Assembly (NCBI GenBank): GCA_019828565.1
Contig: JAHDYR010000033.1
Coordinates: forward strand, 155,827 to 219,826
Reading direction: 5' to 3'
DNA length: 64,000 nt
Source: Carpediemonas membranifera BICM
Taxonomy: Eukaryota; Protista; Fornicata
Below are positions 3,184 to 47,359 of this stretch, one piece after another. Position 1 is the first letter of the stretch, and the number at the start of each line of letters is the position of its first letter. The notes under the pieces are model-generated. The model searched no databases, was not told the DNA's origin, and worked only from the letters and a program-made list of their open reading frames with translations. The translations under genes and the position numbers were made by a program.

Positions 3184-4000
3184 GTGCTTGGCCTGCGATA
3201 ATTACTTGGCGTCCCGTAAAGCCCAAAAATTAATCAAATCGTCATCAAATGCGAATTAAAGATGCTGATATTGCTCATGAAACGACTCTGCTGATCAGCT
3301 GGGACTCTACGCGGCGATATGGCATGGCAAGTCTCTACACTTTGGAGACAATTCGGTCCCATGGTTCCTACCTTGACCCACGTTGTCTCGCGCGCGCGAG
3401 GGACTCACTAAAAGGATATATCAACACTGGGAGCAGAAAAAAGGCACAGCGAGATGCAGGCGCTGTTGCTGAGCTCATTTTCCGGATAAGACCCGTTTTT
3501 GTCACCTCAACCCATTCATATTGGCGGCTGTTGCTTCGTTTTTGATCAAATCAAATGGAAACCAAAACGAGATCCGGGAAACGAGGATGAATGGGAGAGA
3601 TAGACACATCATAAGGTCTTTAATATAGTAATGCACCGTCAATGAGAAGTTCTTGGTTCCTGAAATGGATTATTGATCCCAAACGCTTTTCTTTGAGGAT
3701 AACGCACTTATAGCGGTGATTTCCACACAATTCATCCAAATACTGATCAAAACATCAGAACTGCAAGTAAAATGGGTATAGATCGTTTATCCACGGAGAT
3801 ATCAATTGCTCCCAATCCCAGCTTGCAAGAAAAAAGTTAAGGGGCTGTATTGGGGCTTGCACTGATATCTCTATATATGCCGACACAGTCACTGGGCTGT
3901 CCATCACTGAACAGCTCTAGCCCAATACAAAAACATGAGGGCTCGAAGTTTTGGCCTTCTCGGAAAAGGGTGGCGGAACGCTGCAACACTACAATGCTAA

Positions 4001-4069
4001 TGGACAGAGGGGAGGAAGTGGTCCACTGGTATGTCCTATGGGTCGCTTCTTCCCCTCTGTCCATTTTTT
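4001..4069 (+). other. About 25-bp G:U-containing hairpin followed by a T-run; second copy at 59441-59509
   Basis: tggacagaggggaggaagtggtcca pairs with tgggtcgcttcttcccctctgtcca; then T6. Confidence 0.75.
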
Positions 4070-4145
4070 ACACGATATCGATTTGCCGGATTTGACACAT
4101 GTTGTGCGATCTTTAACTCCTCGCGTCCAACCACCTCTCCCAAAC

Positions 4146-5146
4146 GATCTGCAAGATCGACCAGCCCCTGGATCACTTGGGCCTGCCTCCGTGCCCGGCC
4201 TGTTGCGATCAATGATGGTGATTACTTGCAACGAACGCGATCACCGGAAATTACCTTACCTTACCTTACCTGCAGGTACCATGGGTGTTCGTTTTCGTCT
4301 CCAAACGCCATGGTGTAAGAGCATAAAGTGCATTTTCTGTTTACTGTGCCGTTGGGGATTGATGGCGCTGGCGTAGGGGTGCTGTGTGGGCGCCAGGGAT
4401 GAGGGAGCCAAGATGAGGGCGCCAGGGATGAGGCGCCAGGGATGAGGCGCCAGGGATGAGGCGCCAGGGATGAGGCGCCAGGGATGAGGCGCCAGGGATG
4501 AGGCGCCAGGGATGAGGCGCCAGGATGAGGGAGCCAAGATGAAGGCGCCAGGGATGAGGCGCCAGGGATGAGGCGCCAGGATGAGGGAGCCAAGATGAGG
4601 GCGCCAGGGATGAGGCGCCAGGGATGAGGCGCCAGGATGAGGGAGCCAAGATGAGGGCGCCAGGGATGAGGCGCCAGGATGAGGGAGCCAAGATGAGGGC
4701 GCCAGGGATGAGGCGCCAGGGATGAGGGAGCGATGAGGCGCCAGGGATGAGGCGCCAGGATGAGGGAGCCAAGATGAGGGCGCCAGGGATGAGGCGCCAG
4801 GATGAGGGAGCCAAGATGAAGGCGCCAGGGATGAGGCGCCAGGATGAGGGAGCCAAGATGAGGGCGCCAGGGATGAGGCGCCAGGGATGAGGGAGCCAAG
4901 ATGAGGGCGCCAGGGATGAGGAGTACAGTATTTGAACCCCGAAAACGCCATATTACCAGCACCAATGAGCTTCATCAACGAAGATGCGCTCACTGGTGCC
5001 GGTTATGGCGTTTTCGGGGTTCGTCGATCATTCTGCTCCCAAATCTGCACCTGTATTTTCGTGAGCATGCCCGGGAGCTGGGCCAGACGAGTGGTGCCAC
5101 AGGGACTAAGCTCCGCTGCTCAGCCTCTGCCAGGCGACACTCGTCT
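4146..5146 (+). repeat. Direct copy of unit-1 right-end block (12246-12758) with expanded tandem array
   Basis: Near-identical to 12246-12758 apart from array length. Confidence 0.95.
4389..4921. repeat. Minisatellite of about 14-bp units (gcgccagggatgag / ggagccaagatgag)
   Basis: Directly visible; short versions at about 12488-12532 and 38700-38755. Confidence 0.97.
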
Positions 5147-5284
5147 GAATTCTGCACGAAAAAATTCAGACGACGAATGATGGGCAAAGGGCCGCGAAAA
5201 CGCTGAAGTACCAGCGCAAGTAGAGCGGTTTGCAATAAAATAGCTTACTTGCGCTGGTGCTGGCGTTTTCGGGGCCCTGAATTG

Positions 5285-5670: not shown

Positions 5671-6141
5671 CTCTGCTCTCTCCAGCGTCCTCACTCGTAA
5701 ATGTACGTTGCTGTCTTGTCTGCTTGATCTGATTTCATTTAGTGTGCACTTTAGGGGATAATTTCATTGCAACGCCAAAATGGCGAGTTCAGGTTGTAGC
5801 AATGATCTGATGCGCGGAATGTACTAGAAAACATTGCAATTACAACGCAAAGCAGCGAAAAGCGGAGAAATCAACATCAATAACAACATCAACACCAAAA
5901 GAACAGTATCCCAAAGAATTGTGGGCGTTGCTGCGCCAAAGAGCAATAAATGACCACAAAGCATTCGCTTATGCACAATTAGCTGCCAGAAAGAACACTA
6001 CACCGTTACTTTGGATCATCCCAGTTCGCCGGAGATGACGCAGGTCCAGAACGCTGCCTTGGAGGGCTGGTGAAGCGGTTGTGTAGCGCTTACTCGCCTG
6101 GCCTTTGGGGCTCTCTCAACATCCTTCCAGACTACTGCATT

Positions 6142-6565
6142 GTCATTCACCGGAGGAGCAGGCCAGAGTCACTTGCCATCTGGCGCATCATGAGGAGATA
6201 TTGGAATGTGATGATGTGTTTATTGACTAAATGAGCTGGAATTAGGCGGGTTTGATGTTGCTTACATGTTCTGTGGCATGCCTGATGTCCAAAGATGTAT
6301 TTTGGCACAGTGATGTTGTTTAGTGTGCTCATTGCTGACCGCATAGTTATCTGACTTCAATGTGTCGTGTTGATGCCAAGAAATCGATGGTAGCTCGCAC
6401 GTTTGAGGTAGTTGCTTGTTGCATCGATGCAACGCACTTTAAGGATTAAAAAGCTGTACCCCATAGCCGTTTCCTAAGGCCAAATGCGGCCCTCTCTAGC
6501 GTATATACACGCGTGAATTGGGACTAGATGGGACTAGATGGGACTAGATGCAGTGTTGTGGCATG
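6142..6565 (+). repeat. Direct copy of 11833-12246
   Basis: Near-identical sequence; gggactagat x3 here versus x2 at about 12211. Confidence 0.95.
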
Positions 6566-6759
6566 CCCGGTTTAGCTGAATCCACAAATGTGGATCGGCT
6601 CGGGCTGCCGTATAGGTGGCCATGCTTTGAACTTATGGCTGGAGACTGATACAATTGGCAGGTAGTTGACTGCTACGGACGTGCTATGGACAACCGACGG
6701 TATGCCTGTCTGGGCATCAGCGCTGTCGTTCAGGCCAATCCACGTTTGTGGATCCGTGC

Positions 6760-6963
6760 AGTTTATGGTTTCTCGGCCTCCATGCAACAGCCCTGCCTCA
6801 CCATCGGTATCGACGTGTACTGCGGCAAGAACAGCTTCACCCAGGGCGAGGATAACGTCCGCCAGGGTCAGCGCCGCTCCGTCATCGGTATGTCCGCCTG
6901 GTACGTCGAAGAGCAGGGCCACCTTGAGACCGTCAACCGTCCCGTCGAGACCATCGCCCGCTT
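6760..6963 (+). pseudogene. Fragment of an Argonaute/Piwi gene (start of the PIWI RNase H domain)
   Basis: QPCLTIGIDVYCG...RRSVIGMSA matches the PIWI motif P..hhhGhDV.H....SV.Gh.A; strongly C/G-ending codons unlike flanks. Confidence 0.7.
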
Positions 6964-7413
6964 GGCGAGTAAGCGCTACACTACCGCTTCACCAGCCCTC
7001 CAAGGCAGCGTTCTGGACCTGCGTCATCTCCGGCGAACTGGAATGATCCAAAGTAACGGTGTAGTGTTCTTTCTGGCAGCTAATTGTGCATAAGCGAATG
7101 CTTTGTGGTCATTTATTGCTCTTTGGCGCAGCAACGCCCACAACTCTTTGGGATACTGTTCTTTTGGTGTTGATGTTGTTATTGATGTTGATTTCTCCGC
7201 TTTTCGCTGCTTTGCGTTGTAATTGCAATGTTTTCTAGTACATTCCGCGCATCAGATCATTGCTACAACCTGAACTCGCCATTTTGGCGTTGCAATGAAA
7301 CTATCCCCTAAAGTGCACACTAAATGAAATCAGATCAATTTGTGGTCAGCTGCGCCAAGTCGATGGCTTAGTCAGTGTTTGAGTCATTCCCACGACTTAT
7401 TTACTTCGTTCAT

Positions 7414-8730
7414 TTACTTCTGGTGCTTTTCCTGCTCTCTCTTCTCCATCAGGTCGTCATACTCGGCCCTCGTCAGCCTCACAGTTGTCATCCCGGCATC
7501 ACGGATGTGCTCAAAGGCCTCAACAGGCAGCTTCGGCATCCCGTCGTCGCTGTCGCTGCTGCTGCCCAAGTCTGACTCGCTCTCGTGATAGCGGCGAAGG
7601 TGAATGCGTCTGCTGGGCTCCCTGGTCTTCATAGAGTCATAGAGCGGAGCGAGCCCACTTCCATTGGTCCCGCTACGGACACCCTCATCGGTATCTCTCT
7701 CAGACATATCACACTCAACCTGTTGTGACTGAACAAATGACAGGTTGTCGACGAGGCTATCCTCGACATCGCTGTCTGAACTCTCCTCATCCTCCCACTC
7801 TCCTTCCAGCATCTCCAACCCGGCCTCATCGTCAGACTCCCCCTCCCCCGTGTCGTCCCCCTCGGGCTTACGCTGGTCGTGGAGCTGGACCATCCTAATC
7901 CTGAGCTTGTTGTAAAGCCAGTCATCGAGCGTCGGCGGCACCAGGTCGGCAGAGCTTCGGATCTCCGGGTTGAGATCGAGGATCGTTGGGCGTCGCGTGG
8001 TCGTTAAGTGACTGGACGCCAACTGGCGCCTGAACTGCTCATCGGTCAGGCTGATGCGCTTGTCCTTAATGACCTTACGAACCTTGGTCGGATCCCTGGG
8101 CCTGCCCGTCCGTCTCTGTGTCTCAATCACCCGCTTCTTGAGCTGATTGAGATCGACATGCACAGTGGGCGCATAGCGAAGCTGGTTAACACTCAGCCCG
8201 ACCGACTTGAGAGCCTGCGAGAAGGTGCTAGGCATCACAGCGGACATCGCGGATGGTGCCCCGGTGAATAGCAACCAGTCAGCGAGTTCCGGGGGAATCT
8301 GGAGCTCGCTCACATCAATATCGCGGGCTGATGTGGCAGTCATGCCTGTGTGGCTGATGATAAGAGCCAGCGCATTGTAGGGGAAGACTAGTCGGACAAT
8401 AGCTTCCAATGCGACAGGCTCAAACTGCCCAAGCGGCTTGACATTGTCTCTGCCGGAGTTTCGGAATGAGTTGACGGCACTGAGAGTGACAGCAGCGGTT
8501 GCCTTGCTCAACGATGCAGCAAAACCGGGCACAAGCGATCTAACCTCCTCGGACCGGATCACGGAGAGCGCTTCGTCCTCGGTACTCCCTCGCTCACGTT
8601 GTACGAATTGAACGAACCGCGAAAGGTTGTTTGCGGCCGCTTTCCGGGAAGATTTCTTGCTGATGGTGCACAACCAAGCATTCTTCACGTCTTGCATGCT
8701 TGTTTCCATCTCCCGCGGGCTTCCTTCCAT
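7414..8730 (-). CDS. Degenerate tyrosine-recombinase-fold protein with AT-hook and acidic tail (unit 1)
   Basis: Core-binding-like helices (LSKATAAVTLSAVNSF), ALALIISHTGMT (box I, R missing), GLSVNQLRY (box II, H missing), RTGRPR AT-hook, D/E-rich C-terminus; paralogue of 36899-38260. Confidence 0.6.
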   Translation of the reverse strand: MEGSPREMETSMQDVKNAWLCTISKKSSRKAAANNLSRFVQFVQRERGSTEDEALSVIRSEEVRSLVPGFAASLSKATAAVTLSAVNSFRNSGRDNVKPLGQFEPVALEAIVRLVFPYNALALIISHTGMTATSARDIDVSELQIPPELADWLLFTGAPSAMSAVMPSTFSQALKSVGLSVNQLRYAPTVHVDLNQLKKRVIETQRRTGRPRDPTKVRKVIKDKRISLTDEQFRRQLASSHLTTTRRPTILDLNPEIRSSADLVPPTLDDWLYNKLRIRMVQLHDQRKPEGDDTGEGESDDEAGLEMLEGEWEDEESSDSDVEDSLVDNLSFVQSQQVECDMSERDTDEGVRSGTNGSGLAPLYDSMKTREPSRRIHLRRYHESESDLGSSSDSDDGMPKLPVEAFEHIRDAGMTTVRLTRAEYDDLMEKREQEKHQK

Positions 8731-8731: not shown

Positions 8732-9061
8732 GATATACGGATTTCAGACTTTCGTCATGCACAAAAATTCGAATCTCTCCAAATGCCCAAAACAGTGGTC
8801 AAACCGTGTTCAGGGGTACAAAAGAGTGCCATAGGCACGTTCTTGCATTTCAAAATATTCTAGAGGTCGTTCATAAATTCTCAGATGGCCAACAGTACGA
8901 AAGTCTGAAATCCATTTATCATGAGACCCGACAAATTTGAAATCCATTTATCGGGTGGATACATCACTGTAGAGGGTATTCATGGATATAGGTGCCTTTT
9001 CGGTGCCGAGGGGAGTCAACATTTGAGGTCGTGCAGGCAGAAAGTCTGAAATCCGTATATC
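8732..9061. promoter_or_regulatory. Operator-like repeats upstream of the unit-1 YR-like gene
   Basis: Perfect 22-bp inverted pair gatatacggatttcagactttc (8732-8753 / 9040-9061), extra copy at 8899, partial at 8938. Confidence 0.6.
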
Positions 9062-9185: not shown

Positions 9186-9637
9186 GCGCACTTTACGCTC
9201 GCAACGAGATTGAAATGGCGAACTTAAGAATAGAAAGAATACTGGCGGCTTTAACGTAGTAGGCATGTGCACAACACTAAGAAACATCAGTTGGCGGGCG
9301 CAGAGCATCATTAAAGCAACAATTATCTCTAAACGACATCAAGTACCAAAAGTCCATCATGATCATACGATATGAACTATAAATGAACTACAGATCAGTA
9401 TATATGATTTGAGAGTACCAGGCATGGCCAAAATACCGCAATACTCGTCCTTTGATCCACGTGACCTCCATCTTGGTCGGTATCCAGAGAACCTCCGTCA
9501 GACGCTTGCAACGGAACATTTAGGGGGAGCATCCTGAATGGGGCCAGATTTGAGGGACCCTTGGTCTGACATGTCATGACCGAGTACTCTAGGGGCCTCC
9601 ACAGTGCGTCCCGAGGTACGTTAGAGCACCACAGACC
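9186..9637. promoter_or_regulatory. Conserved non-coding core, copy 1
   Basis: Homologous to 35987-36437 (inverted) and 46676-47080; 37 bp invariant at 9455-9491. Confidence 0.8.
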
Positions 9638-9964
9638 TTCCCCCAAAAGCTGACTCCTGGACCCCTTGGCCGGAGCTCGCCCGAAGCGTGCCTCGGCTTG
9701 AACTAACGGCAAGAGAGCATAAAATCAGCCCTTTCGAACCGTGTTTTATGCTCTGCTGCAGTTATAGAATTATTCAAAGGGCCCTCTCTTTGCGCTTTTT
9801 TCTGGTTCGTGGGACGAAGTAGGGACGGACAAAAAAGCAGATACGGAAGGTATTGGAGGTAATGAGGCCGCCTAGGTACATAGTTGCCATGTGGATGGTT
9901 TCAGTTTATTACTTTTGGCACTCTATGTCCATTTTTTTATGCTCTCTTGCTGATAGTGCCGAAC

Positions 9965-11717
9965 ATGGACTTGCTAAAGTGGATTGAGAGCGCTAGCAAG
10001 GAACAGTACGATGCGATATTGGCTGCATACACCAAGGCAACCACCAATCATGCCAAATGTGCTGTCCTTCGCGCGGTTTTGCTGGATGAACGGAAACTGC
10101 TCGATCTAGTCATCAGGAAGCGTTTGTAGTCATAGCAATGCTTATATAGGAATCAACCTGAACCATATCACCACGAAATTCCGCCTCACGAAGAACGAGA
10201 AGGAGGAGCTCCATGATAAGTTGAAGAAGCAGTTTATGGCACTCGCCGGACCAAGAAGTTCCAAGAAGCTCGGCGCGCTGGCGAAGTGGGTTGACGACAA
10301 CCAGGCTGATATCGTGTATAGCAAGGAGAAGCGCAAGGCGCGTAAGGCCATTATTGAGGCCATTGACGCCGAGGAGAAGGACAAGGGCAAGGGCAAGGCC
10401 GAGAGCGCTAAGAAAGAACCCGTCGACGATGAGAGTGGCGTGGACAGTGGTGAAGAGAGCGGCGTCGACGATTCTGAGTTGTGCGACAGTGAGAGTGAGG
10501 TGGACTTTGACAACGAGTCCGACGATGAGATTAGAGAACGCGCGATCAAGCGCCGGCGCGAGAGAAAGATCGCCCAGAAGCTCAAGGAGTGGGAGGACAA
10601 TAACGCTCGCAACTACGTCCTGTGGCATAGAGTCCAGAAGGAGGTGCACGGCGAGCTTCGCATTCGCGCCTCTCGAGAGTCAGCTTCGGTTGCTGGGGAC
10701 AACCACGTCGACGTCCAGTTCGACAGATACCTTCGCGTATCCAAGCTGCTCGAAATGAAGGACTGGATTCACAAAGACCTCCCATCTCTTCCGATGGAGG
10801 CACGAGTGCTCCATCACAAGGCGCAGAAGAGAGTACTCGAGCTGGAGGAGACCGTCACGAGGCTGCTGCAAGACGTGGGGTACGCAGCTGACATCTCCAT
10901 GGGTGCCAGCCCGACACCCGCGCCGTTTCGCCGCGACCTACCCCAGTCGGGCACACACCAAGCACGAACGAGTACCCCCCGCCGTACGGGGAAGAGCGAC
11001 ACAATCCACATGAAGCGCAAGGCCCTCATGACAATCCCTCAGAAGATCGCTGATGTCGATAGCAACTCAGAGGAGTCAGACGAGGAGGAGATGGTGACAG
11101 AGGAGAAGAAGCGCGAGGCACACGAGGAGGTGGTGACAGAGGAGAGGAAGGGTGAGTCACATGAGGAGGACGTGACCAAATGCGACGCCTGCATCCAGAC
11201 TGAGCCGGAGACTCAGACTCGCATCACCTCTGAGGCCGCGGTGCAGACGTGCATCAACGCGGAGGCTCTCACGGCTGGCTGTACCGCGATTCATGTCAAG
11301 AGTGACGGCAACTGCGTTGCATATTGTCTCCAAGCCATTGAGTTGGGTGGCCGAGTTGATGGCGACTTCGAAAAGTGGCAGCGTGGCCTCTGCCAGTCAG
11401 TGAAGGCCAAGTACTGGTCTAAGAAGAATTTCACGGAGCGTAGCCTGACAGATCCGGACTCCGGCTACTATAACTCGAACGCCATCCGAGTCTGGGCGAG
11501 GAAACAGAAGCGGAACATCCTTGTTGTCCAGTCATACGACGGATACAACGGCATGCAAGGCATCTCCGCCATCTTATACCTGTTTGATGGCACCACCATG
11601 CTTGCACCCGATGCAGACTTGTGGGGGTTGACAGATAATTTCGCTATTGTCATCGAAGGCGATCCGGCTCACGCCACGCTGTACCAGAAGAAGTGCGAGG
11701 TCGTTGAGATTGAATAA
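9965..11717 (+). CDS. OTU-like cysteine protease/deubiquitinase with coiled-coil and acidic N-region (unit 1); intron 10122-10149
   Basis: VKSDGNCVAYCL and distal IVIEGDPAHATLY; removing the 28-nt GT..AG intron joins ORF 9965 to ORF 10221 in frame. Confidence 0.75.
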
Positions 11718-11832
11718 AGATTTGGATATGCCCGTGTAGCCAGCGGTTCATGACCTGCAGCAGACATTTGGACGTACAGCGGGATACCACATCAATTAGG
11801 TCACTTGCGGGCTAAGATTGTCGTTGTCGATC

Positions 11833-12758
11833 GTCATTCACCGGAGGAGCAGGCCAGAGTCACTTGCCATCTGGCGCATCATGAGGAGATATTGGAATGT
11901 GATGATGTGTTTATTGACTAAATGAGCTGGAATTAGGCGGGTTTGATGTTGCTTACATGTTCTGTGGCATGCCTGATGTCCAAAGATGTATTTTGGCACA
12001 GTGATGTTGTTTAGTGTGCTCATTGCTGACCGCATAGTTATCTGACTTCAATGTGTCGTGTTGATGGCAAGAAATCGATGGTAGCTCGCACGTTTGAGGT
12101 AGTTGCTTGTTGCATCGATGCAACGCACTTTAAGGATTAACCACCTGCACCCCATAGCCGTTTCCTAAGGCCAGATACGGTCCTCTGTAGCGTATATACA
12201 CGCGTGAATTGGGACTAGATGGGACTAGATGCAGTGTTGTGGCATGATCTGCCAGATCGACCAGCCCCTGGATCACTTGGGCCTGCCTCCGTGCCCGGCC
12301 TGTTGCGATCAATGATGGTGATTACTTGCAACGAACGCGATCACCGGAAATTACCTTACCTTACCTTACCTGCAGGTACCATGGGTGTTCGTTTTCGTCT
12401 CCAAACGCCATGGTGTAAGAGCATAAAGTGCATTTTCTGTTTACTGTGCCGTTGGGGATTGATGGCGCTGGCGTAGGGGTGCTGTGTGGGCGCCAGGGAT
12501 GACGGCGCCAGGATGAGGGCGCCAGGGATGAGGAGTACAGTATTTGAACCCCGAAAACGCCATATTACCAGCACCAATGAGCTTCATCAACGAAGATGCG
12601 CTCACTGGTGCCGGTTATGGCGTTTTCGGGGTTCGTCGATCATTCTGCTCCCAAATCTGCACCTGTATTTTCGTGAGCATGCCCGGGAGCTGGGCCAGAC
12701 GAGTGGTGCCACAGGGACTAAGCTCCGCTGCTCAGCCTCTGCCAGGCGACACTCGTCT
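11833..12758 (+). repeat. Unit-1 right-end block (short array plus hairpins)
   Basis: Duplicated in two pieces at 6142-6565 and 4146-5146. Confidence 0.9.
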
Positions 12759-12759
12759 C

Positions 12760-13287
12760 AATCATCTCAGCGACGTTGGCACCGTTGACTGACGAAGCTT
12801 GCATTGCACGCGTGGAGTCAACGGACATAGTGGGCTGCTCAGCGGTCTGAACAGTGGGGTGGGGGGTGGGGACGGCAGGATTGCGGCGCGGCTGGCACAC
12901 CCGGAAGGCTCTTTGGGAGCTGTCGAGCTTGGAATTTCGCAAATGATCAATTTCAGCGTCAGTGAGGGTTACAAGCTGGCTGAGTCCGGCTATCAATGCG
13001 GCACGCCCTGTATCTGTCGCGTGAATTCCTTGGTAGATGCCCTTCGTGTTAGGAGAGAGTTTGCGGCCAGCAAGGTTCTCGATAGCCTTGGGTACTGACC
13101 TCATGAAGTCCTACTTGCGCGGCATGCGCTCTAGAATAGTTTTTGGGAGGATTGCAAGGATTGCATCCGCGATGGAGCGACAATCGCATTTCGTGCTTCT
13201 CTCTTCCCAACGATAGCATGTTGCGATGATTGTGTGCACAATATCACGCACAGTATCTCTTGAAAGCCGCTCCTGGTCTTCTACCAT
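12760..13287 (-). pseudogene. Truncated gene, possibly N-terminal homologue of the PHD proteins at 39981 and 51000
   Basis: ATG 13287, one in-frame TAG near 13111, cut by the 12758 block; weak similarity RDIVHTIIATCY..CRSIADAIL versus RSFVTAVVSSVF..ARDIHKVL. Confidence 0.4.
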
Positions 13288-13557: not shown

Positions 13558-14088
13558 ACCGTAGCGATCTATTGAGTTATATTCAGTTCTGGCCATGTTC
13601 GGCTTTTCCGGAATGTCAAAAATTTGACACGTCCATTTCTCCAAATTGCTGATTGCCAACGCTAGACCAGACATGCCAGGCTGTAGTACACGTGCTATAC
13701 TACAACGTGGTGGTTCTGGTTTGCCGTTGGCAATCAGCAATTTCGAGAACAGACAAACTTCTTTTGCGATTTTTGCAACTTCTGGAGCATATATCATTTG
13801 GTACAGACCCAGCCACGCAATAAAAACGCATAGCGTGGCTTACCATGGTCGGAACTATCCTAAAAAAGTTTGCGGTAAATATTGAGTAAATATTTAATAT
13901 AGATCTCGAGATTTAACGTCCCTTAGGTAGCCCTTGGATGCAAACATCCGCCCAGTAAATTTCGCTGTACAGCTCTAGCCCAAGACAAAAATATGAGGGC
14001 TCGAAGTTTTGGCCTTCTCAGAAAAAGGTGGCAGTATACTGCTACTTTTCTTTGCTTGAGTAGCTGTATTACACCCCCTCCAGACAGC

Positions 14089-14637
14089 ATGACAGCTGAG
14101 GGAGCCCTCCTGGCGCTGAAGCGCACTCGAGAGCCGGGTGCCACGGTCTCTCGTGATGTGGTGGTGGACCTCCTCAAGCGCGTGGTGATGGCAGGCCGAC
14201 ACCCAGCCATGTTCTCGCTGCTTATGGCGGCTGAGAACCGCGGTGCCTCGCGCCTGACCGCCACCCGCTCCCGCGACTTCGTTCGGGCCTATTGGACCTG
14301 TGTCCGGCTTGAGCATCTCCCGGCTATGGAGCTTGCCATGAACAAGGAGCTGTTCACGCTCCAGCTCACGGACACGTCCGCCGCGTACGGTGTGGTGGAG
14401 GTCAAAGAGCACATCGAGCTCTACGAGAACGCCCGCCAGGAGGAGTCGTTCATCCTGCTCGTCCAGTTTTCGGGCTATCCGCTGCCGTCACTGACCTTCC
14501 TGACCCAGGATCTTTGCCGCACCATGCCTGTCACTCGTTATCTCAACGAGCATAACTTATGGCGTCGTGTTCGTCGGCGCTGGGAGCATGACGGCATCTT
14601 CTTTGAGCTTGGTGACAGCCTTGGTGCCATTGAATAA
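14089..14637 (+). CDS. Protein with C-terminal chromodomain-like region
   Basis: AYGVVEVKEH...FILLVQFSGYPLPSLTF resembles Y.VE.I..H...YLVKW.GY....TW; GC3-rich codons. Confidence 0.55.
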   Translation: MTAEGALLALKRTREPGATVSRDVVVDLLKRVVMAGRHPAMFSLLMAAENRGASRLTATRSRDFVRAYWTCVRLEHLPAMELAMNKELFTLQLTDTSAAYGVVEVKEHIELYENARQEESFILLVQFSGYPLPSLTFLTQDLCRTMPVTRYLNEHNLWRRVRRRWEHDGIFFELGDSLGAIE

Positions 14638-14666: not shown

Positions 14667-17600
14667 TTACTTGGCCCTTCCCAGGAATACATCCAGTGCT
14701 TCACAACCCTTGACATTCCCATATGGTTCCCATGTGTCCTCTGACGGCTCATATCCCAGCCATCTAACCCGGAACTTCCTGTCTCTCATCCTGGCCTCAC
14801 TCGTCGACTCTAGTATGGACTCGACCAGATATTCACCGAGCGTGACTGCCGCGAGTTCCTGAGCCCGTTGCTCGGACAACTCACCCATAAAGGCGCGAAC
14901 TCTCCGAGGCGACTTGGAACTCCTTCTTTGTGTTGACATCCTTGACGACATAGCCCACCGTGAGGTTCTGCCTCACGATAGGACGCACTAGCTTCATAGG
15001 CCCTCGCCATCCTGACGCCAACTTGGACGGCGGTCCATTCGGGTACTTGACCAACACATAGTCGGACGAGATAGGTGTCGTTGCTGACACTTTGTCTAGC
15101 GCATCTTGGTGCATGACCTTGATTCTCGCCTCTGCCAAGTCTCGGGCTAACTGAGCTGCTTGAACATTACTGCTGGGCTGTCCAGCCATACTCTGGACGT
15201 CTGCCATCATCACGTCTGCCGGGACACGGAAATCGCTACCGAAGATGACCTCGGCCGGTGTTAAGCGTGTCGCGGTGTGGGGAGACGCGTTGACGATATA
15301 CTGCGCGACAGGGAGGGAGTCTGACCACAACTCGCTCCGAAGCTGGTATTGCCTGTTGCGTAAAATGCGCTCAATGCGGCTGTTCGCCCGTTCCACAATG
15401 CCGTTTGACTGTGGATGGTACGGGGTGGTGACGTGAGTAGCAAACCCTACGCGCACCGATAGATCTGTGAATAGCTTGTTGACGAACTGCTTGCCACCGT
15501 CTGTCTGTAGAACTCTGGGCACGCCGTACCGGAGAATCCATCCGTTGACGAAGGCAGTCACAGCTTCGTCCGCCCTTGTGGACTTGAGTGGGACGAGCTC
15601 GGTCCACCGCGAGGCCATATCAATAATAACTAAGATGAACTTGTACCCGCGAGACTCTGGTAGGGGGCCAATAGTATCCATGGCTACCCACTGGAACGGT
15701 CGCAGGCTCGCCGTGTGGAGGTACGGTCTGGACGCCTCGGCCGGCTTGGCGGTAAGTTGGCACACGGGGCAACGATCCATGACCCGCGCTACCCTATCCA
15801 CTGGAGCCCGGAGCCCGTTAGATCTCAGCCACTCTACCGTCGTATAAACCGGGAGGTGGGCCTGGCCGTGCATATGAGCTGCCTGGATCTCGTCATCGGT
15901 AGCTGTTGCCTGTCTGGCAGTTGCGGAGAAGACTCGACTCAGCCCGTCCGCCGCTCCGTTGTCAACCCCGGCCACATGCTTCACTGTGAAGTCTAGGTCT
16001 GCGATTGACTCGTACCAACGCTGGACTTTTTGCGTTAGACGATCGTGACATGTAGACCAGGTTCCGGTGGTCAGTGAGGAGAGTAAACGACGTCCAGCAC
16101 AGGAAACGGCGCCACCTCTGGAGGGCGGTGACAATCGCATACGCTTCCTGTTCGATCGTGCTCCAACGCGTCTGCACATCTGAGAACGCGTGGGACATAT
16201 AACACACCGGCTTGCCGTCCTGGAGGAGAACACCCCCGATCCCGAGATCAGACGCGTCTGTCATGACCACATGATCCTTCGAAACGTCAAAGTGCTCGAG
16301 TGCCGGTGCGTGGCAGAGGCGGTCCTTAACCTTGGCCAGCGCCTCTGCCTGAGGTAATCCGTCCGGAGCCTCCTTGCCGCTTGCCGCCCGGGCTAACGGT
16401 CGGATAAGCTCGGAGAAGTTAGGAACAAAGTCTCTCATAAAGTTGAGGAATCCCATAAGGGCCTGCGTGGCCTTCTTCGTCTTCGGTAGCCGCAGGCCTT
16501 CTACATCGCGGATCCTGTCTGGAGCAATCCGGAAACCCGAGCCGGACACAACCCATCCTAGGAACTCCACTTCGGCTAGGCCGAAATGCGACTTCTCCTT
16601 GTTCAACGATAGCTTGAGCTCGTCACATCGGCGGAGCACCTTAGCGAGATTGGCCAGATATTCCTGCTCCGAGCGTCCAAAGATGATAATGTCATCTATA
16701 TATATAATGCAGGCGTCGCCTAAGAGGTCCTGGAACCCGCGCTCAATCGCGTACTGAAAGTGCGCGCCAGCGTTCTTCAGGCCGAACGGCATTCCGGTGT
16801 ATTGGAACTTCCCACGGGGGTCATAAACGCCGTGTATTGCCTAGAACGCTCGGTCAGCTCGACCTGGTGATACCCTTTCGAGAGGTCGAGAGTGGCGAAG
16901 ACCTTGGCACCAGCAAGCCTGGTCAAGCACGTGTTAACCTCGGGGATCGGATAGTCGAATGGCGTGGTCAAATCATTGATTCTGCGGAAGTCTACGACCA
17001 TCCTGGTCTTGTCCTTGCCCTTGGGGACGAGCAATGCTGGAGAAGAGTATGGCGAGAAGCTGGCCTCGATGTATTTCTTCGACAGTAGTTCGTTGACGTG
17101 CTCGTCGAACAGGCCCTGCTTCTGGTACGGTATGTAATTGGATCTCGTGGCGACGACGCGGTCCTCCTTGAGTACGAGGTCGTATGGCTCTAATGCTGAG
17201 AACCCTTCTCGAGCATCAAAGCAATGAGCATAAGCTGCGAGGATGCGGTCATGAGTGAGAGTGTAGTCCGAAGACAGAGTATACGCCTGGAGCGGCTCAG
17301 GCTCTGGCACGAAAGGCTCCAAGGCGTCTTCATTGTCAGACTGAGACGGTTCACACAAGCTGGGGAGAATACCCCACTCGACCATGGTCTGATATGACAA
17401 GAGGAGATCATAAGCACAGTCAACCCCATACGCGGAGACTGTGGTGGATAGACCTTTCGGGGTGAAAGGTGACTTACACATCTTCAACGGCACCTCATAA
17501 CACGTATCAGTCTCGATCGTTCCACCCGGAGTCTTGATCTTAATGGGTGCAGCGAGCTTCGTCGGAATGAGCTCGGCCGCTCTGGCGGAAGCCGGGTTGA

Positions 17601-18755
17601 CAAGAGAAATGTCAGCACCACAGTCGAATAAGACACGGTGCCATGTGGTAGATTCGTCGCTACCCATAGGGACGACGGCACTCACGACGGGTAGGGAGCG
17701 CTGGCCTTCAGCCGCCGACGTAGAAACAGAGACAGAGAAGCATGATCTGGGGTTTACCTGACAGAACTTGTCTAGGTGCCCCGACTTGCCGCACTTCGCG
17801 CACACGGCCTTCTCTCTGGTGCATTCGAAAGCGCGGTGGTTCGGCCTGCCGCAGTTAAAGCATACGATGTCTCGCTGGTGACCGTGGTGTTGCGTCTGCT
17901 GCTGACGCTGACCGTGACGTTGGCCTTGCTGGTGGAAGTGCGTCTGATACTGGCGGGGCTGGTGTTGCTGCCGCTTGTCTTGGCGCGGCTGATCCTGAGG
18001 CTCGCGCTGCTCACGCGGGGGGCGTTTGCGGACAGCGGACTGCTTAGAGCGTTCGCGCTCTTGAGCAGGGGCAGGCTTGGACGTTGAAGTGAGCTTGATT
18101 GCTTCCTCCAGACGCTTACATGTCAGGAGGGCGGTCGAAAAGGTCGCATCAAGTGACAGACCCTTGGAGGCGTGAGAAACCTCCTCTCTGAGCGTTTCGT
18201 CTTGGATTCCGCGCAAAAACTGGCCGCGAAGGACTGAATCCTTGCCCGTGGGTGCAATGAGACGGCGGCGGGAAGCGAAGCGGTCGATATAGAGAGATAG
18301 GCGGCCAATATCGATACCAGTGGTCGATAGGTCGAAAAGGCGGCGCTCAAGGATCGCATCGGAGGGCTTAACAATGTCCACAATCGCCTGGAATACGATG
18401 TCCTCGCGTTCGTGCTTCGTTCTTTTGGAGCCATCATCGTGATGTTTTGCGGCCTGATACTTTCTGGTAATATCAGTACCCATCGCCTTGCAGTATGAGG
18501 TCACCGCGGGTCCGAGTCGCTTAAGCAAGCGCCTCTTTCCGCCCGCGCGAACATGCTTATCCAATTTCTCGGCAAATGAGAGGACTGCGTGAATCTCAGG
18601 CTGTGTACATAAAGGTCCCTTATCCATTAGTTTGGAAGTAAGCTTACTGTGATCACTAAGGAAAAAGACTTTACAAAGAGAGCTCGACACAAGGGTGTCG
18701 AGCTGGACGGATCAAGACCGTATCAAATACGTATCTCATATATAAATGGCTGACA
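14667..18755 (-). mobile_element. Ty3/Gypsy chromovirus A (gag-PR-RT-RH-IN-chromo), frameshifted; 5' LTR present, 3' LTR not found
   Basis: Two CCHC knuckles, LFDCGA, LDLSKGYHQ, YIDD, TDASD, DTIGP/TDGG/VER, EYLVESI..VRWLGY..DTWEP. Confidence 0.96.
18696..18755 (-). repeat. 60-bp 5' LTR of element A
   Basis: TGTC..GACA termini; abuts the DLSKAFHQ codons of element B; similar to 25782-25837. Confidence 0.8.
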
Positions 18756-21003
18756 GACCTATCCAAAGCGTTCCACCAGATCATAATCAACCAGGACTCG
18801 CGCAAGTATACCGCTTTTGTGGCTGGTGGGAAGAAATACCAGTATAAGCGGATGCCCTTTGGGCTTCGTAATGCTCCCATCCACTGCCAGAAAGCCATGG
18901 AACACATTCTGGGTCAATCCCTTTATACTCAGTGTCTCGCTTACATAGATGACATTGTCGTCTTTGGAGCGAACCGTGACGAGTTCCTGAAGAATCTGGA
19001 GGACGTGTTAGCTCGCATCCACGCGGCCGGTCTGAAGCTTAATCCTTCCAAGACGGTCATTGGAGCGACTTCCATCGACTATTTGGGCTGGCGAGTAGAC
19101 AAGGACGGTAAGCGGATCTCCCCCGACCGTCTGGAGGCCATCCATGATCTCAAGGAGCCGACTAGTCTGACGGACGCCCGAGCCTTGCTCGGGTTCGCGA
19201 ACTACTTTCGAGCACTCATTGAGCGTTACGTCGATATGACTGAACCCATCACCGAGCTCACCCGAGCCGCCGAAAAGTTCGTTTGGGGCGACCGACAACA
19301 TGACGCGTTTGAGCAGATTAAGCGAGAGCTTCTACTGCAGCGCACGCTGGTCCACCCCTGTCCCGACGAACATCTCCACATTTTTACGGACGCATCAGAC
19401 TACGGCATTGGTGGCGTGCTGATGAACGCGGAGTTTAAGCCCATCGCGTTCTTCGCCAAGACGCTCACGCCCCAACAGCGCCGTTGGTCTACGATAGAGA
19501 AAGAGTGCTACGCTCTGTACTTCGGTACTACCAAGTTCAGACGCTATCTCGCTGGACGAGACTTCACAGCTCATCTAGATCACCGTAACTTGGTCTACAT
19601 GGACCGTTCCTTGAATTCCAAGGTGATTAGATGGAGCCTCGCGCTGTCTGAGTACTCATTCGACATCGTACACGTTCCAGGTTCCGACAACTCTGTAGCG
19701 GACACCCTGTCCCGCCTCGTTCACCTGGACGAGACCTCCGTCGAACCTTCCCCTCCACCCGAGGCGCATCGGGAATCCTTCCAAGAAGCACATGGCGGAG
19801 ATGCTGGTCACCTTGGCCGTGATGCCACCTGCAAACGCATCATAGCCGCCGACAAGGGCTGGCCTGGCATGCGCCGGGACGTTACTGCCTGGATAAGACA
19901 GTGCCCTGTTTGCCAGTTGACACGCCTCAAGCTTTCACCGTTTCCCCAAGCGACCCATCCCATGACCGGCAGCCGACCCTTCGAAGTAGTGGAGGCCGAC
20001 ACCATTGGTCCCCTCTCACTGCCCGGGCAACACCGCTACGCGGTTGTGATTATCGACACGTTTACTAGACTCACCCAAGCCTACCCCCACGAAGAGCACG
20101 GACGCTGTATCTGCACGTTCGGCTTTATCGACATGGATGAAACACTATGGCTCCCCGACATGTTTGATTACCGATGGTGGCTCACAGTACCATAACAGAA
20201 CCATCAGAGAATTTTGCCAAGACCACGGTATAAGACACGAGATCGGTACGCCTTATCATCCTGCGGGACAGGGTGCTGTTGAAAGAGCGAACAAAGAGGT
20301 GAAGAGACACCTACGCGCCTGGATTCTCGAACATGACGACGACTGGGAGGACGCCTTACCACGAATCACGAATATAATCAACAACGCACCTCTAACGGCC
20401 TCCAACCTGTCGCCGTACGAAGTCCTATACGCCAGGGACGTTCACGAACCGACTAGACAACCTTCCCTCACCGTCGACCACTTTCGTACCACCCTACGCT
20501 GTTTACAGAGCAGACAACGCGCTGTCGGTGGCCAAACTCCAGCGCAGAGCCATCCAGCGAGTCATCTCCTTGGATCCGCCGCCATGATCCAGCGCAAAAC
20601 TGCCATAGGCATCGTACCCCGGGGCCCGGTCCGGGTAATCTCCACCAATCCCGACCGCCCCAACACCTACGTCGTTCAAGACCTCACCACTGACCACCGC
20701 CTGACAGTACATGCCTCTGAGCTTTACCAGTTCGAGGGCAGCTACACTGACGCTGAGCTCAAACACTGGGCAGCCCGCAACGAAGGAGAGTACGTGGTTA
20801 GGAAGGTTGCTGACCATCGCCGACAAGCGGGCAACCTTCAGTTCCTCCTCTTGTGGGAGGGCTACGATGACGACGAAGGCACATGGACCGATTACAGCCG
20901 CGAAATCGATGGATTAGCTGCCCTGGACGCATACATTAATGAGCATCCGAGATTGAAGCTTCCATCGCTCAGGAAGGGACGCCACGCCGGTAAATCCCCC
21001 TGA
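18756..21003 (+). mobile_element. Ty3/Gypsy chromovirus B, 5'-truncated pol (RT-RH-IN-chromo)
   Basis: DLSKAFHQ, MPFGL, YIDD, TDASD, DTIGP, TDGG, EYVVRKV..LWEGY..GTW; one frameshift near 20090. Confidence 0.95.
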
Positions 21004-21143
21004 GACGTGTGCTGTTGATGTTGTTTGATGAAGAAAGAAGAGAAGAAGAGGAAAAGTGATTGCAATCACGAGGATAATGATAATGAACGCAAATGATCAC
21101 CTAAGAGAGAGAGAGAGAGCGTGAACTCGCCGAAACGAACTAA

Positions 21144-24100
21144 TGTGCCCTTAACCTGCGGAATTCGTAAAACAGTCTTTATCATATTTCTGGGCCCTAG
21201 CACGGCACAGTATCGATACTGCCGATTCAAATGAAGACTCTTACAATTGACACCCCGTTCGCCGTCGAGAGAGCACTCCAGGAGTACCTCTCGGCGATGC
21301 CCCACGAGAAGAATCCAATTTCGTTCTTTAGGGCATTGTCCCCCGAGACAACAGAAAAACTTCGCGCCCAGTGGCGCCCAACCACTCTTTTTGACACTTT
21401 CGAGGACCTACAACGAACCGTTCTGTCCGATTCCGATGCTCGCCGCGCGGCGAACACAAGCTCTGCCAGTACTGCGGCACGAGCCCGTACAACGAAGACC
21501 GACAACCTCACCGCCATCTGGGTAGAGGAGGTACAGAAGACCATAAGAAAAGCCACGTTCGCCGCCTGTAGCGAGTGTGCAGCTAAGCACAAGGACCCCA
21601 CCCTGACAGCAATGACCCGGGAGTGCCTTGAAGCTCAACATCCCCAGATACTGACTGACTGCGGCAAGAAGGCCCGCGACTTCTTCACCCAGCTGACCGA
21701 CGACCACGACATCGCAAACGTCGAGACAGTCGCACGGCCTGGCAACCTGACCGGCCCGGACGGCGAAGACGTCTCGGTGGCGTTCGTGTACATGCCCCCA
21801 GTGCCCGAGGAGACCAAGCCCGCCCCCTCCTCGGCGGCTTGGCCAGTCTTCGATGGCGGGGACGTCTACGCTTTCCTCGCCAAGGAGGCGACCTCCATCG
21901 CCCCCTACCTCGCATATACCCTCTTGACTAGTACGGACCCGGGCGCAAGAGCCAAGCTCCTCAAGGCAAAGCTCGACAACATCACGCTATACGGTCCGGA
22001 GCCCCGGCACCGAACGGCCGTCGAGAAGGCACGTAAGCTCATAAGCGCCCTCAACCCAGACATCAAGGACGTCCCCACCATCTCCGCAAAACTGCTCGAG
22101 CGGATCATTCGGGACTTCGCCACTAGAGGTTTCTCCAAAGAAGCCGAGGATGTATACGAAGAAGAGATTGAGGACTACTCCGACAAGATCAGCGAACTTC
22201 TCGACAAACTACGCGACTTGGATGTTGATCACGACGAGAACATCATTATCCCATGGCGTGCCTTCAGACTCGCCAGCCCACAAGCCGACAACAACGAGCA
22301 GGCGTCGGGCACTTCAGGCAGGAAGCCGCTCGCTCGCAGGCTCGATGGTCGCGATCCGTTCCAGCAGTTCAGGGACAAGACCAAGTTCCGCATGCCTCCT
22401 TCCCACACGAGATACTGCACACAGCATGGCTGGAACCCGCACCACGAGACGAAGGACTGCAGGTTCCTCATCAGACGGGAGGCTTACAAGGCCCAAGAAC
22501 GCCAGCCACAGACCGAGAAGCGTCAGGAACGCAGACCCGAAGAGCGGCAAAAGCAGCCCGGCAACCGCGCACGCCCTGTGGCGCCCACCAGTCACCAACA
22601 GTCGGATCGCCGGGCCGGCCGCATGGACCTCCGCCCCTCGTCTACCCTGAAGAACCCCCGCCGCGTCGATGAGGTGTTTGACGCGGATGAAGCGTCTCAT
22701 TCGGAGTTGGAGAACGAAGTCTACGAGATCGAGGACATCATACTCGACAAGGACCCGGTGAAGGTCCCGGCTGTTATCAACGGCCAGCACATGAACGTCA
22801 AGTTCGACATCGGCGCTTGCACGTCGGTCATATCAGCCCCTGCCCTCGCAGCGATCCCCCGACGTGACCCTGATACCGACCTCAGTCGAACTTCTCGGCG
22901 CTGGGGACGATATCATCTCCACTGGCAAAGCCGCCAAGGTCTCGCTGACCCTCCCCAGTGTCGACGGAAAGACCGTGACCACCACTGCGTTGCTCATGGT
23001 CACGAAGGGCCAGAGGAAGAAGGTCCTCATTGGACGCGATTTGCTCCGCCGCCTCGGCTTCCTGCTGAACGACCGGCTACTAATACCGTCCGCTGACCCG
23101 ATCGATGACGACGACGGCCTGGGACAGCACCCCTACCTCGACTCGACAACAGAAGAAGTCGACCCCGAGGAAGAGTGGCGCAAGGTTAAGCTGCCGACCG
23201 AAGAGAACCCGGAGCTGGCTGCCTGGCTGACCGACTTCCTTCGCGAGCGCAAGGCCGTGTTTGGCCCTCTACCTCCGGATGGCAGCAGGATGCCGCCACA
23301 CGAGATCGTCGTCGATCCAAGCCGCCCTACACCCAGGGCCCGACCCAGGCCGTTGAAGGGTGACCCGGGAAACTCAGCCCTCGCGGAGATCGACAAGATG
23401 CTCAACCAGGGCGTGATCCGAGAGAGTCAAAGTCCGCACTCTAGCCCGCACGTCATGGCAAAGAAGAAGAGCGGCGAAGACCGCTTCTGCATCGCTTACA
23501 ACGTCTTGAACAACGCCACCATCGACGACCTGTACCCCACGCCGGACATCCGATCGTTTGTACACGAGGCGAGCGGATGCTCCGTGTTCGCGGCGCTCGA
23601 CCTGCGCAGCGGATACTGGCAGCAGAACATGGCAACCGATAGCATCCCGCTCACCGCATTCACCGTCCCGGGCGGGCATTACGAGTTCTTACGTACACCA
23701 TTCGGGCTGAAGAACGCCCCAGCAAAGTTCCAGCGAGCCATGGACGAGATGCTCGCTGGTATCGACGGTTCGAGAGCCTATATCGACGATATCTTTGCGT
23801 ACGCCCGCTCCATTCAGGATTTCAAGTCGACCCTCACCCAGATCTTCGACCAGTTGGAAGCTTACGATATCAAACTCCGCGCCGACAAGTGTGCCATTGG
23901 CATGAAGGAGGTTGAAGTCTGTGGGTTTATAGTCAACGAGTCTGGCAGGTCGGTTTCCCCTCACGTATCGCAGCCATCCAGGACCTCACACCCCCAACGA
24001 CGACAACGGAGCTGCGCCGCACGCTAGGCAAGTTCAACTATCTGTCAAACTATATCCCACACCTCGCCCACGCATCAGCCCCGCTCAACGCCCTCCTAAA

Positions 24101-25382
24101 GGGATCGCCGCAGAAGTCGGCCCCCCTCGATTGGACTGCCACTGAGGACGAAGCATTCGCCCGTATGAAGACCCTAGTAGCCGAGCACACCGCCCTCGCG
24201 CTCCCAGACCTGAGTGCAAAGTGGACTCTCGAGACCGACGCATCGTCGACCGCCATCGGTGGTGTACTGTGGCAGGGCGAGGGTGACGAGAAGGTCCCAC
24301 TCGCCTTCTACAGCAAGACCCTCGACGAGACCCAGCAACGGTGGTCCACGGTGGAACAGGAGCTTTTCGCCATTGTCTATTGTGTAACGCGACCAGAGTT
24401 TTCCCCCCTCTTCAAGCTGAAGCCGTTCGAGCTTCGCACGGACCATCGTAATCTGATATGGCTACTCAGGAAGACAGACGAGGACGGCACTAAGAAACTG
24501 ACACGATGGCGACTCACCATGACAGAGTATCCGTATAACGTCACACACATAGCTGGAGCGCAGAACCTCGTAGCCGACGCACTGTCGCGGCCATCATCTC
24601 AGCGCAAGAACGAGGTGCGCCGCTCGATCGACCACGTCACCACGACGCGCCAAGAGCAGATCACCAGGGCGCACGCCGGTGCACAGGGCCACGTCGGCCC
24701 AGACCAGACCATCGCCAATCTGAAGCAGTCCGGTGTCACGTGGCCAGGCATGTCGGATGACGTCCGCGCGACCTTACGCCAGTGTCCAATCTGTCGCAAG
24801 ACAAAGCCAGCCCGCAAGGAGCCGATCAAGTGGCACTCTACTCAGCGCATCCGCCCATTCGAGACGGTGCAGGTGGACACCATTGGCCCTTTGCCCGAGA
24901 GAGACGGTCTCAAGTACGTCATCACGGTGGTGGACGTGTTCTCGAAGTTCACCATATTGAAGCCCACACGGTCAACGAGCGCAGCCGAGGCAGCAGCCGC
25001 ATTGCTGGAGATCTGGGCGACTTTCGGCGTCCCGGCCGAGCTCCAGTCTGACCAAGGTACACAGTTCAGGAATGCCCTAGTCGAGGAGATGAACGAGCGA
25101 CTGAGCCTCAAGCACCGGTTCAGTACGGCATATCATCCGGCCAGCAACGGCGTAGTCGAACGCCTGAATGGTACCGTCATGAGACGCTTAAGAGCGCTCC
25201 TGCTGGACGCCCGCGACGACAACTGGCCCGCATACCTGCCCATCGCCCAGCACGTTATCAACGCCACCCGCCACTCCACCACAGGCCTCAGCCCCTTCGA
25301 ACTATTGTTCGGACGCAAGTCAACCATGCTGCGCGTCGCGCCCGACGCCCTGACCAACGCAACCCAGATGCTCGAGCACTGA
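21144..25382 (+). mobile_element. Ty3/Gypsy element D (66-bp 5' LTR 21144-21209, gag-PR-RT-RH-IN), 3'-truncated
   Basis: LTR tgtgcc..ggcaca; CHHC knuckle, FDIGA, LDLRSGYWQ, YIDD, TDAS, DTIGP/SDQG; frameshifts near 22860 and 23960. Confidence 0.95.
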
Positions 25383-25837
25383 GCCCGGCTCGAGCATCTG
25401 GGTCGTTAGCTGGAAAAGACGGCGCTCTAGGATCGGATCAGTGGGCTTAATTGCGTTAGCAATCGCTCTGAAAACGAGGTCCTCTCTCTCATGTTTCTTA
25501 CGCTTCTCGCCCGTCACTGTGTTGTGCTTCGCGCTCTTGTATGTCTTGGCTACGTCTATACCAACTGCTGCACAGTATGAGGTGACAGCCGGACCCAAAC
25601 GCTTGATAAGTCGGCGTTTTCCGCCCGTTCGGACATGGCGTTCGAGTTTCTCCTTAAACGAAAGCAGAGCATTAATCTCTGGTTGAGTACATAACGGACC
25701 CTTGTCCTCAGTCATTGTAAGTAACGTTACTGTGGGTTCGTGAGAACAAAGCTTTACAAAGAATAGAGCTCGACACCCATGTGTCGAGCTGGACGACTCA
25801 AGACCTACCTATTAAATAATCTATTGATGAACCAACA
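25383..25837 (-). mobile_element. Ty3/Gypsy fragment E (56-bp LTR 25782-25837 plus gag N-terminus), close relative of A
   Basis: DKGPLCTQPEI..GGKRRL.KRLGPAVTSYC shared with A gag. Confidence 0.9.
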
Positions 25838-26359
25838 GGGGTACTAGGCCTTGCAGATCTAGAGTCTGTGTTAGCCCTAGCCCACGCCGCCTAACAGGGG
25901 TAGATGAGAGGGACTTAGTTGCTTTCCCCGCCCACGGGTAGGCCACTTAACAGAGTCGTGGGGGCACTGAACAGGGAATCTGGAAAGATGAGAGGGTGCC
26001 ATGCTTGAACGACCCCGTAGGGACTGCAGGGAATCAGGGAGTGCTATAGAGAAGGTCTTGCAGGACAAACCTGCCTGTGGAAGCACCGAGGACAGACCCC
26101 CAGGCTCCCTGGAAGCTGCCGGGTTTACAGGGAGACAGGAAAGCGCTCAGCGCACGGAGATGGCGAAGGCCTATGGGGGGAAGTGAAATCGGGAGTGAGC
26201 GGAAGCAGTAGCACCGAATCGCTCGTTGGACGCAGCTGACAAGTTCAATCGCAGGGAGGAGGCAGCGCCCCGGGGAACTCGGCTCCAGTAATAAGGGAGA
26301 TCAGCCTAAGTAACCGGGGCCCGATACCAGGCACCATAAATTTTCTTTCTTTCTTTCAG

Positions 26360-28059: not shown

Positions 28060-28132
28060 TGGTCCCTGCCAGACTCGAACTGGCATCGCAGGATTCAGAG
28101 TCCTGAGTGCTAACCACTTACACTAAGGGACC
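28060..28132 (-). tRNA. tRNA-Gln (anticodon CTG)
   Basis: GGTCCCT acceptor stem, D-arm, CAGGA-CTCTGAA-TCCTG anticodon arm, GTTCGAG T-loop, T4 downstream. Confidence 0.96.
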
Positions 28133-34019: not shown

Positions 34020-34045
34020 GTAGGACTTGAGATATGAGTCAAGGG

Positions 34046-35777: not shown

Positions 35778-35986
35778 TCTTCTCTTCGTTATATCCCAAT
35801 AATGGACATATAACAGAGATGAGAAAATTGCCAGTAACCGTAGGCAACGGGGTGTCGGAAACGTTATACCATACAAACGGGGGATATAATCGCTCCGAAA
35901 ACATCCATTATGTGGACTGAATGGCGATATAACGTATGGGGAGTGATCCGACGAGCTTTCGGGCGGTGCAGGCTAAGACACACCAA

Positions 35987-36437
35987 GTCTGTGGTGCTAT
36001 AACGTACCTCGGGACGCACTGTGGAGGCCCCTAGAGTACTCGGTCATGGCATGTCAGACCAAGGGTGCCTCAAATCTGGCCCCATTCAGGATGCACCCCC
36101 TAAATGTTCCGTTGCAAGCGTCTGACGGGCGTTCTCTGGATACCGACCAAGATGGAGGTCACGTGGATGAACGGACGATAATTACGGTATTCTGGCCATG
36201 CCTGGTACTCTCAAATCATCTGTACTGCTCTATGCTCCATTTATAGTTCATATCGTTTCGTCCTGATGGACTTTTGGTACTTGATGTTGTTTAGAGATAA
36301 TTGTTGCTTTAATGATGCTCTGCGCCCGCATACTGATGTTTCTTAGTGATATGTGCATGCCTGTATCGTTAAAGCCGCCAGTATTCTTTCTATTCTTAAG
36401 TTCGCCATTTCAGTCTCGTTGCGAGCATAAAGTGCAC
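35987..36437. promoter_or_regulatory. Conserved non-coding core, copy 2 (inverted)
   Basis: Reverse complement of 9186-9637; invariant 37-mer at 36132-36168. Confidence 0.8.
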
Positions 36438-47355: not shown

Positions 47356-47359
47356 AATC

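Follow-up and report, generated by a model that had tools for sequence, protein, structure and literature searches.

A repeated two-gene cassette in Carpediemonas membranifera with a conserved core and a kleisin-like segment in its predicted recombinase-fold protein

Results

A conserved core between divergent genes

The stretch of Carpediemonas membranifera DNA analysed here (64,000 nucleotides; hereafter the window) contains three copies of a conserved core, lying head-to-head between two genes, A and B, in 3/3 cases. Protein A is predicted to be a truncated tyrosine-recombinase fold fused to a kleisin-like segment, and the core includes a 37-bp word that is the same in all three copies. With moderate confidence we regard this word as a DNA site recognised by a factor that all cassette types share, placed in a shared control and crossover region. 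Taken alone, the word is of modest interest, being the conserved middle of a repeat; more weight attaches to the cassette and its kleisin-derived segment.

Core copy 1 (449 bp, positions 9188-9636) separates gene A1 (7414-8730, minus strand; 438 amino acids comprising a recombinase core-binding domain, a truncated catalytic-type domain, the kleisin-like segment and an acidic tail) from gene B1 (9965-11717, plus strand; a C-terminal OTU-like domain and a short intron inferred at about 10122-10149). Copy 2 (35987-36435, minus strand) matches copy 1 at 413 of 449 positions (92%) and is bordered by A2 (36854-38260, plus strand; kleisin-like segment at 37493-37834) and B2 (34046-35777, minus strand; introns inferred). 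Copy 3 (46678-47125, plus strand; right edge approximate) shares 64% identity with copy 1 and 66% with copy 2, and its neighbours are B3 (47360-48724, plus strand; two introns inferred, OTU-like motifs) and A3 (45975-46661, minus strand), a gene of 228 codons that starts 17 bp from the core edge and has no detectable relation to A1 or A2 (probability 3%). An earlier note, made from the letters of the window, had described the proteins next to the cores as barely alignable; this is accurate for copy 3 but not for copies 1 and 2, since A1 and A2 are 57% identical overall and 97% identical at the DNA level in their 3' part. The 3' half of A2 is present in a 1-kb tandem duplication (37682-39778), with AAATGGCGA following both stops (38259, 39355). 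Short GT-AG introns occur in genes of the window, and each of the three B genes has a GTTGCC motif, a common hexamer, 70-95 bp upstream of its ATG (9883, 35848, 47267).

Core copies 2 and 3 (449 and 448 nt) have ten identical islands of 9-37 nt in common, which we read from the alignment as a pattern of sites at fixed spacing. Recurrence of the motif GCACTTTA, located at the core edge, was borne out in both arms of a nearby foldback (5746, 7316) and at 4331 and 12431, and additional occurrences lie at 6434, 12125, 28632 and 53434; the earlier description had to be corrected, in that copy 1 carries CGCACTTTA and copy 3 lacks AAATGGCGA. The edge motif has no match in viral contigs. The foldback (5724-7338, with 375-bp arms at 5724-6098 and 6964-7338) bears a weak resemblance to the left-hand part of the core and does not contain the word; its arm is weakly colinear with core copy 2 (0/200 shuffles) but not with copy 3 (65/200). 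The islands of identity, the reuse of motifs in the foldback arms and in nearby repeats, and the peak of conservation at the word point to the core as a region that may control the cassette from between its divergent A and B genes. The foldback arms are 99% identical to each other, and the foldback adjoins the 3' end of A1. A solo LTR was considered and rejected, as similarity continues past the TG...CA ends and target duplication was not seen. Likewise, a Transib end at CACTTTA was not supported: the foldback arms reach 23 bp outside it, and the window has 13 sites against about 8 expected. Mapping of 62 proteins onto the cores returned nothing beyond one match, between protein A1 and core copy 3 (E 0.005), which is attributed to chance because it crosses two stops and is equalled by 2/30 shuffles.

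A mosaic gene family

All named homologues of A1 and B1 are C. membranifera proteins. The A family has at least 24 members on at least 15 contigs, with up to four A genes per contig, and the B family at least 16 members on at least 13 contigs, these counts being lower bounds because the homologue searches were restricted by length. The A profile found no match in viral contigs. For seven of the B proteins the neighbouring accession is an A protein (one of these pairs probably being copy 1), and the consecutive numbering implies that no gene is annotated between A and B in these seven pairs. Judged from the accessions, the other paired loci would also carry a core, with their genes oriented around it in the same manner.

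Both genes are mosaics, and their N-terminal types are reassorted: A1-B1, A2-B4, A2'-B4, A1-B2 and A2'-B1 occur among the pairs, and copy 2 is A2-B2. Six combinations of A and B type among seven pairs plus copy 2 require exchange between the two 5' ends. As the core is the only sequence common to all types in that interval, it is where A and B would be exchanged, and it is likely a crossover zone at which the two genes are swapped. Multicopy neighbours (SET, PHD/FYVE-like and others) are found as well, some of them near A or B genes by locus tag. Together with the multicopy, reassorted A and B genes, these neighbours point to a dispersed cassette within larger repeated islands; the cassette is probably mobile and may ride on a larger mobile element. 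Common element ends were not seen in the 64-kb window, nor were circle joints, expected of an extrachromosomal form, seen in the contigs of two sparse runs. An ORF pair at 41339-43980, in which residues 300-620 resemble RAG1/Transib-like transposases (Atlas 0.95) and for which Pfam and PDB sequence searches gave no support, is a possible mobiliser of the islands.

Upstream repeats specific to each gene type

Operator-like repeats particular to each gene lie upstream of it, one of them at the start codon (A1, A2, B2 and B3 have four each, B1 has three). Those of A1 span 8732-9061 and include an inverted repeat abutting the ATG (8732-8755) and three further copies at 8899, 8931 and 9040; those of A2 (36551-36888) likewise have their inverted member at the start codon. 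The B1 repeats are located at 9702-9724, 9744-9764 and 9935-9957, the last just before the ATG. Upstream of B2 are four TTATAT repeats (35787-35934), and upstream of B3 four palindromic ones (47188-47356). When search patterns were written from the A1, A2 and B1 repeats themselves, no further occurrences were found in the window.

These upstream repeats vary with the N-terminal type, whereas the word is constant, even beside the unrelated A3. This combination suggests that the recombinase-fold protein is probably not what binds the word. Binding by that protein had been put forward in the earlier note; copy 3, which has no recombinase-like neighbour, and the type-specific repeats beside each gene speak against it. 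Protein A probably binds its own repeats instead, and a similar arrangement for B would make both genes autoregulated. Selection would then maintain the word as a site for a host or trans-acting factor other than the neighbouring recombinase-like protein.

Protein A combines a truncated recombinase fold with a kleisin-derived segment

Residues 8-105 of protein A align with XerD (Z 8.7, rmsd 2.5, 81 residues aligned), and the top 16 rows of the comparison are integrase-family domains; further matches to this core-binding fold are SroF (Z 8.7), Ndc10 (7.5) and MrpR (6.9). The next domain resembles the catalytic core of lambda Int (residues 177-315; Z 5.4, rmsd 3.0, 88 aligned). The Z values of both domains are middling; since both match the same family, and in its domain order, a tyrosine-recombinase fold is nevertheless indicated. 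Atlas clusters are also integrase-like (0.95-0.96). Foldseek returned nothing at E 0.001, and sequence searches of Pfam, PHROGs and PDB nothing significant. The match stops at residue 315 of lambda Int, short of His333 and Tyr342, which we take to be catalytic. By eye, box I reads TGMT/TGWE and box II NQLRY/RMLRL; the core-binding and catalytic folds of an active tyrosine recombinase are represented, and the R-K-H-R-H/W-Y set is not. The suggestion of an inactive recombinase fold next to the word therefore holds, although not in its specific reference to Ndc10, which ranks behind XerD and SroF. The binding domains of A1 and A2 have diverged to 27/105 identical residues.

The kleisin (Rad21-like)-derived segment is encoded in A1 at 7801-8103, minus strand. 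A profile search with A over 1.84 billion representatives gave seven matches, two of which are host proteins, P0043 and P0045, that themselves match Rad21_Rec8_N (E 0.0096 and 1.8e-7, respectively). About 80 residues are common to A and the host kleisin P0043 (E 1e-24, 60% identical). The motif of this segment is present in 23 of 25 A proteins and intact in 22, with 43-48 identities in 80, and it is retained also in A proteins with the other type of tail. Between A1 and A2 the segment is identical at 71/75 residues; the acidic tail matches almost as closely (139/148), and some of this identity may therefore stem from recent exchange.

The STAG-binding domain of human RAD21 comprises residues 321-392 (PMC7170815), and the Scc3-Scc1 interface has been described (PMC6120753). 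In the profile alignment the segment extends on human RAD21 as far as residue 343, a stretch that scores only 3 bits. This placement suggests that the segment of A may correspond to the region that binds STAG/Scc3 in human RAD21, and we infer that A may bind Scc3/STAG. The occurrence of a conserved piece of host kleisin in the predicted DNA-binding protein of an element would suggest direct mimicry of cohesin's STAG/Scc3 interface. No paper listed in literature searches describes this cassette, although repeat annotation may exist in the supplements of PMC8516963.

Extent of the invariant block

The three exact copies of the 37-bp word were confirmed at 9455-9491 (plus), 36132-36168 (minus) and 46944-46980 (plus). 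Not one of 100 shuffles gave any exact copy; an invariant run of 37 nt in all three copies was obtained in 0/50,000 permutations over 9330-9636, and in 109/50,000 when the permutations were restricted to the best-conserved 136 bp. Private changes in copies 1 and 2 limit the word to 37 bp, and the actual conserved block is 66 bp long (9426-9491): throughout it, each base of copy 3 is that of copy 1 or copy 2. Within the leftmost 29 bp of the block, copies 1 and 2 carry six changes; the chance that neither is privately changed in the 37-mer is about 0.10. That copies 1 and 2 agree over 37 nt is unremarkable, as they have longer identical runs elsewhere in the core (49, 46 and 41 nt). The conservation signal of the word consequently rests on copy 3, identity to which climbs from 50-60% to a peak of 97% at the word, then declines.

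A contig from run X1 spans 9364-9681 and differs from copy 1 at ten letters, seven of which are listed. Four of these seven lie in the block, and there the X1 allele has the letters of copies 2 and 3, and alignment on copy 3 shows no listed difference within the 66 bp. X1 is thus a fourth allele of the core with an unchanged word, the four alleles including three from one subfamily. In this run, which consists of scattered pieces, depth is 21.5 over the core and 2.5-4.7 over gene pieces, values that do not measure copy number. A second run, X2, has no coverage of the core.

No clear dyad symmetry is apparent in the 37-bp word, and the 64-kb window contains no stretch of at least 11 nt complementary to the 66-mer. 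A 20-mer of the word has no match in viral contigs; its one match in a metagenome contig was set aside as chance, lying inside a bacterial gene with dissimilar flanks. CACGTG is present at 14 sites in the window, about the chance level, and the CDEI motif RTCACRTG, contained in all three copies of the word, at seven.

Alternative readings of the block

The 66-bp identity might reflect a gene-conversion or crossover tract and nothing more, copy 3 having recently received the stretch from the major subfamily and the word being functionless. We consider this the main rival, a serious possibility if an unlikely one. The perfect run itself is what such an event would leave: the next longest is 12 nt, and 0/100,000 permutations reproduce the 66. 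The A and B genes reassort, the left-hand portion of the block has accepted changes in copies 1 and 2, and 66 unchanged base pairs are long for a single binding site but match one conversion event. On the other hand, conservation in the flanks is graded on both sides (70-90%), the remaining islands persist at fixed spacing, and a core must already be conserved enough to recombine. A non-coding cis site remains the best, and a plausible, reading; the argument originally offered for it, the absence of synonymous changes, fails: nothing in the word varies, and a single conversion would give the same picture. Exchange between copies may well help to keep a selected site uniform.

A small minus-strand protein gene in the core (some 66 codons, beginning at the ATG at 9577 and perhaps overlapped by a plus-strand frame) is improbable. 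The ATG is kept in all three copies, and the frame stays open in copies 2 and 3 although they differ at 70 positions, as happens in 2,122/20,000 simulations (p ~0.11); differences are in excess at third positions in 9546-9636 (21/45, p 0.043) and less clearly overall (37/89, p 0.064). Copy 1 has a premature stop, although by eye the X1 letters remove both copy 1 stops in this frame. Against a gene, pN/pS in the best of six frames, that on the minus strand, is 0.61-0.68, stop-free runs of 78 codons arise in 1,777/5,000 shuffles, and a profile search found no protein of 42-191 amino acids. Moreover, 22 codons with no synonymous change are atypical of coding DNA, and the word is unlikely to be coding.

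We give still less weight to a non-coding RNA gene, perhaps starting behind the conserved GAACTATAAA, of which the word would be an unstructured functional stretch. All three copies do have ATGAACTATAAA about 25 nt before the conserved block, but X1 has ACAATAAA at this TATA-like site and the core has no Rfam match at E up to 1. An RNA had been proposed beside the cis site, and structure lends it no support: folding is no better than that of shuffles (z-scores +1.0 to +2.0 for six 141-nt strands, +1.3 and -0.3 for the 66-mer), and the consensus folds carry a covariation penalty, with compensatory pairs at 2/50 and 3/49, figures of low power that derive from three sequences.

The core motif of CDEIII is TTYCCGAA, which occurs in the window only at 2004 and 49230. 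A point centromere, an origin or an att-like site of the neighbouring recombinase-fold protein is very improbable: RTCACRTG lies in the word, A has the recombinase core-binding fold also seen in Ndc10, and the host is reported in PMC8516963 to be devoid of ORC and Cdc6, but the AT-rich CDEII that by definition adjoins CDEI (PMC13017519) is missing (57-62% AT in the 80 nt after the motif, where no CDEIII-like motif is found either), the catalytic part of A is truncated, copy 3 has no recombinase-fold gene, and three cores in 38 kb, with up to four A genes per contig, do not fit one site per chromosome.

Relation to known systems

In lambdoid phage immunity regions, divergent genes with type-specific operators are swapped via conserved linkers. 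The cassette resembles them in its divergent genes with type-specific repeats, exchanged as it appears through a shared core, and differs in being eukaryotic, in its introns and OTU-like second gene, and in having no phage genes. Crypton transposons also place a eukaryotic tyrosine-recombinase fold in a dispersed repeat; here, however, an intact catalytic domain and termini were not found, and Cryptons have neither the second gene nor the central core. The SroF repressor has an integrase-like fold (bioRxiv 10.1101/2025.11.27.690993). Protein A shares an inactive recombinase core-binding fold with SroF, MrpR and Ndc10, but ends after the box-II region, is fused to the kleisin segment and acidic tail, and exists in diverged types, each with its own upstream repeats.

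In the Rep1/Rep2-STB partition system of the yeast 2-micron plasmid, the proteins of a selfish element recruit cohesin to its cis locus (PMC2174020). Protein A recalls this arrangement by joining a predicted DNA-binding fold to a kleisin-derived segment; the cassette differs in being chromosomal and dispersed, in lacking an active Flp-type recombinase and in that its putative cohesin contact would be made through a captured kleisin piece. The core is at most a functional analogue of a phage immunity region or of 2-micron partition, and a member of neither.

A more far-reaching, rather doubtful reading is that the cassette is a selfish cohesin-hijacking module, in which a disarmed recombinase sitting on the repeats would dock STAG/Scc3 via the captured Rad21 segment while the core would act as an STB-like partition, tethering or replication-start locus. 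C. membranifera is described as missing many kinetochore parts in addition to ORC and Cdc6 (PMC8516963). In such a host a repeated invariant site is a concrete target for replication start or chromosome anchoring, and the cohesin-linked reading is worth testing.

Other features of the window

Four frameshifted Ty3-type retrotransposons are present at 14881-25808 and 29485-34021, the last bounded by 65-bp direct repeats, and DIRS-like pieces with RNase H-like and tyrosine-recombinase-like ORFs at 26240-27813 and 52612-58355. Genes of chromatin type near the cassettes (48755-52244, 39981-40830, 45130-45790 and 13927-14637) comprise a SET-domain gene, multicopy cysteine-rich PHD/FYVE-like genes and a multicopy gene for 334 amino acids; by eye, a possible acetyltransferase and a chromo-like gene belong to the same set. 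A tRNA gene lies at 28060-28132 on the minus strand.

Non-coding blocks recur in rearranged order on both sides of copy 1 (4146-5150, 6139-6565 and 11830-12762). An array of 38 copies of GGCGCCAGGGATGA occupies 4389-4921, with short versions at 12489 and 38693, and is followed by a long hairpin at 4934-5022. Long imperfect hairpins are also found between genes at 3999-4065, 13637-13749, 44748-44900, 52528-52627 and 59434-59508; the segments 3999-4103 and 59438-59544 are 81% alike.
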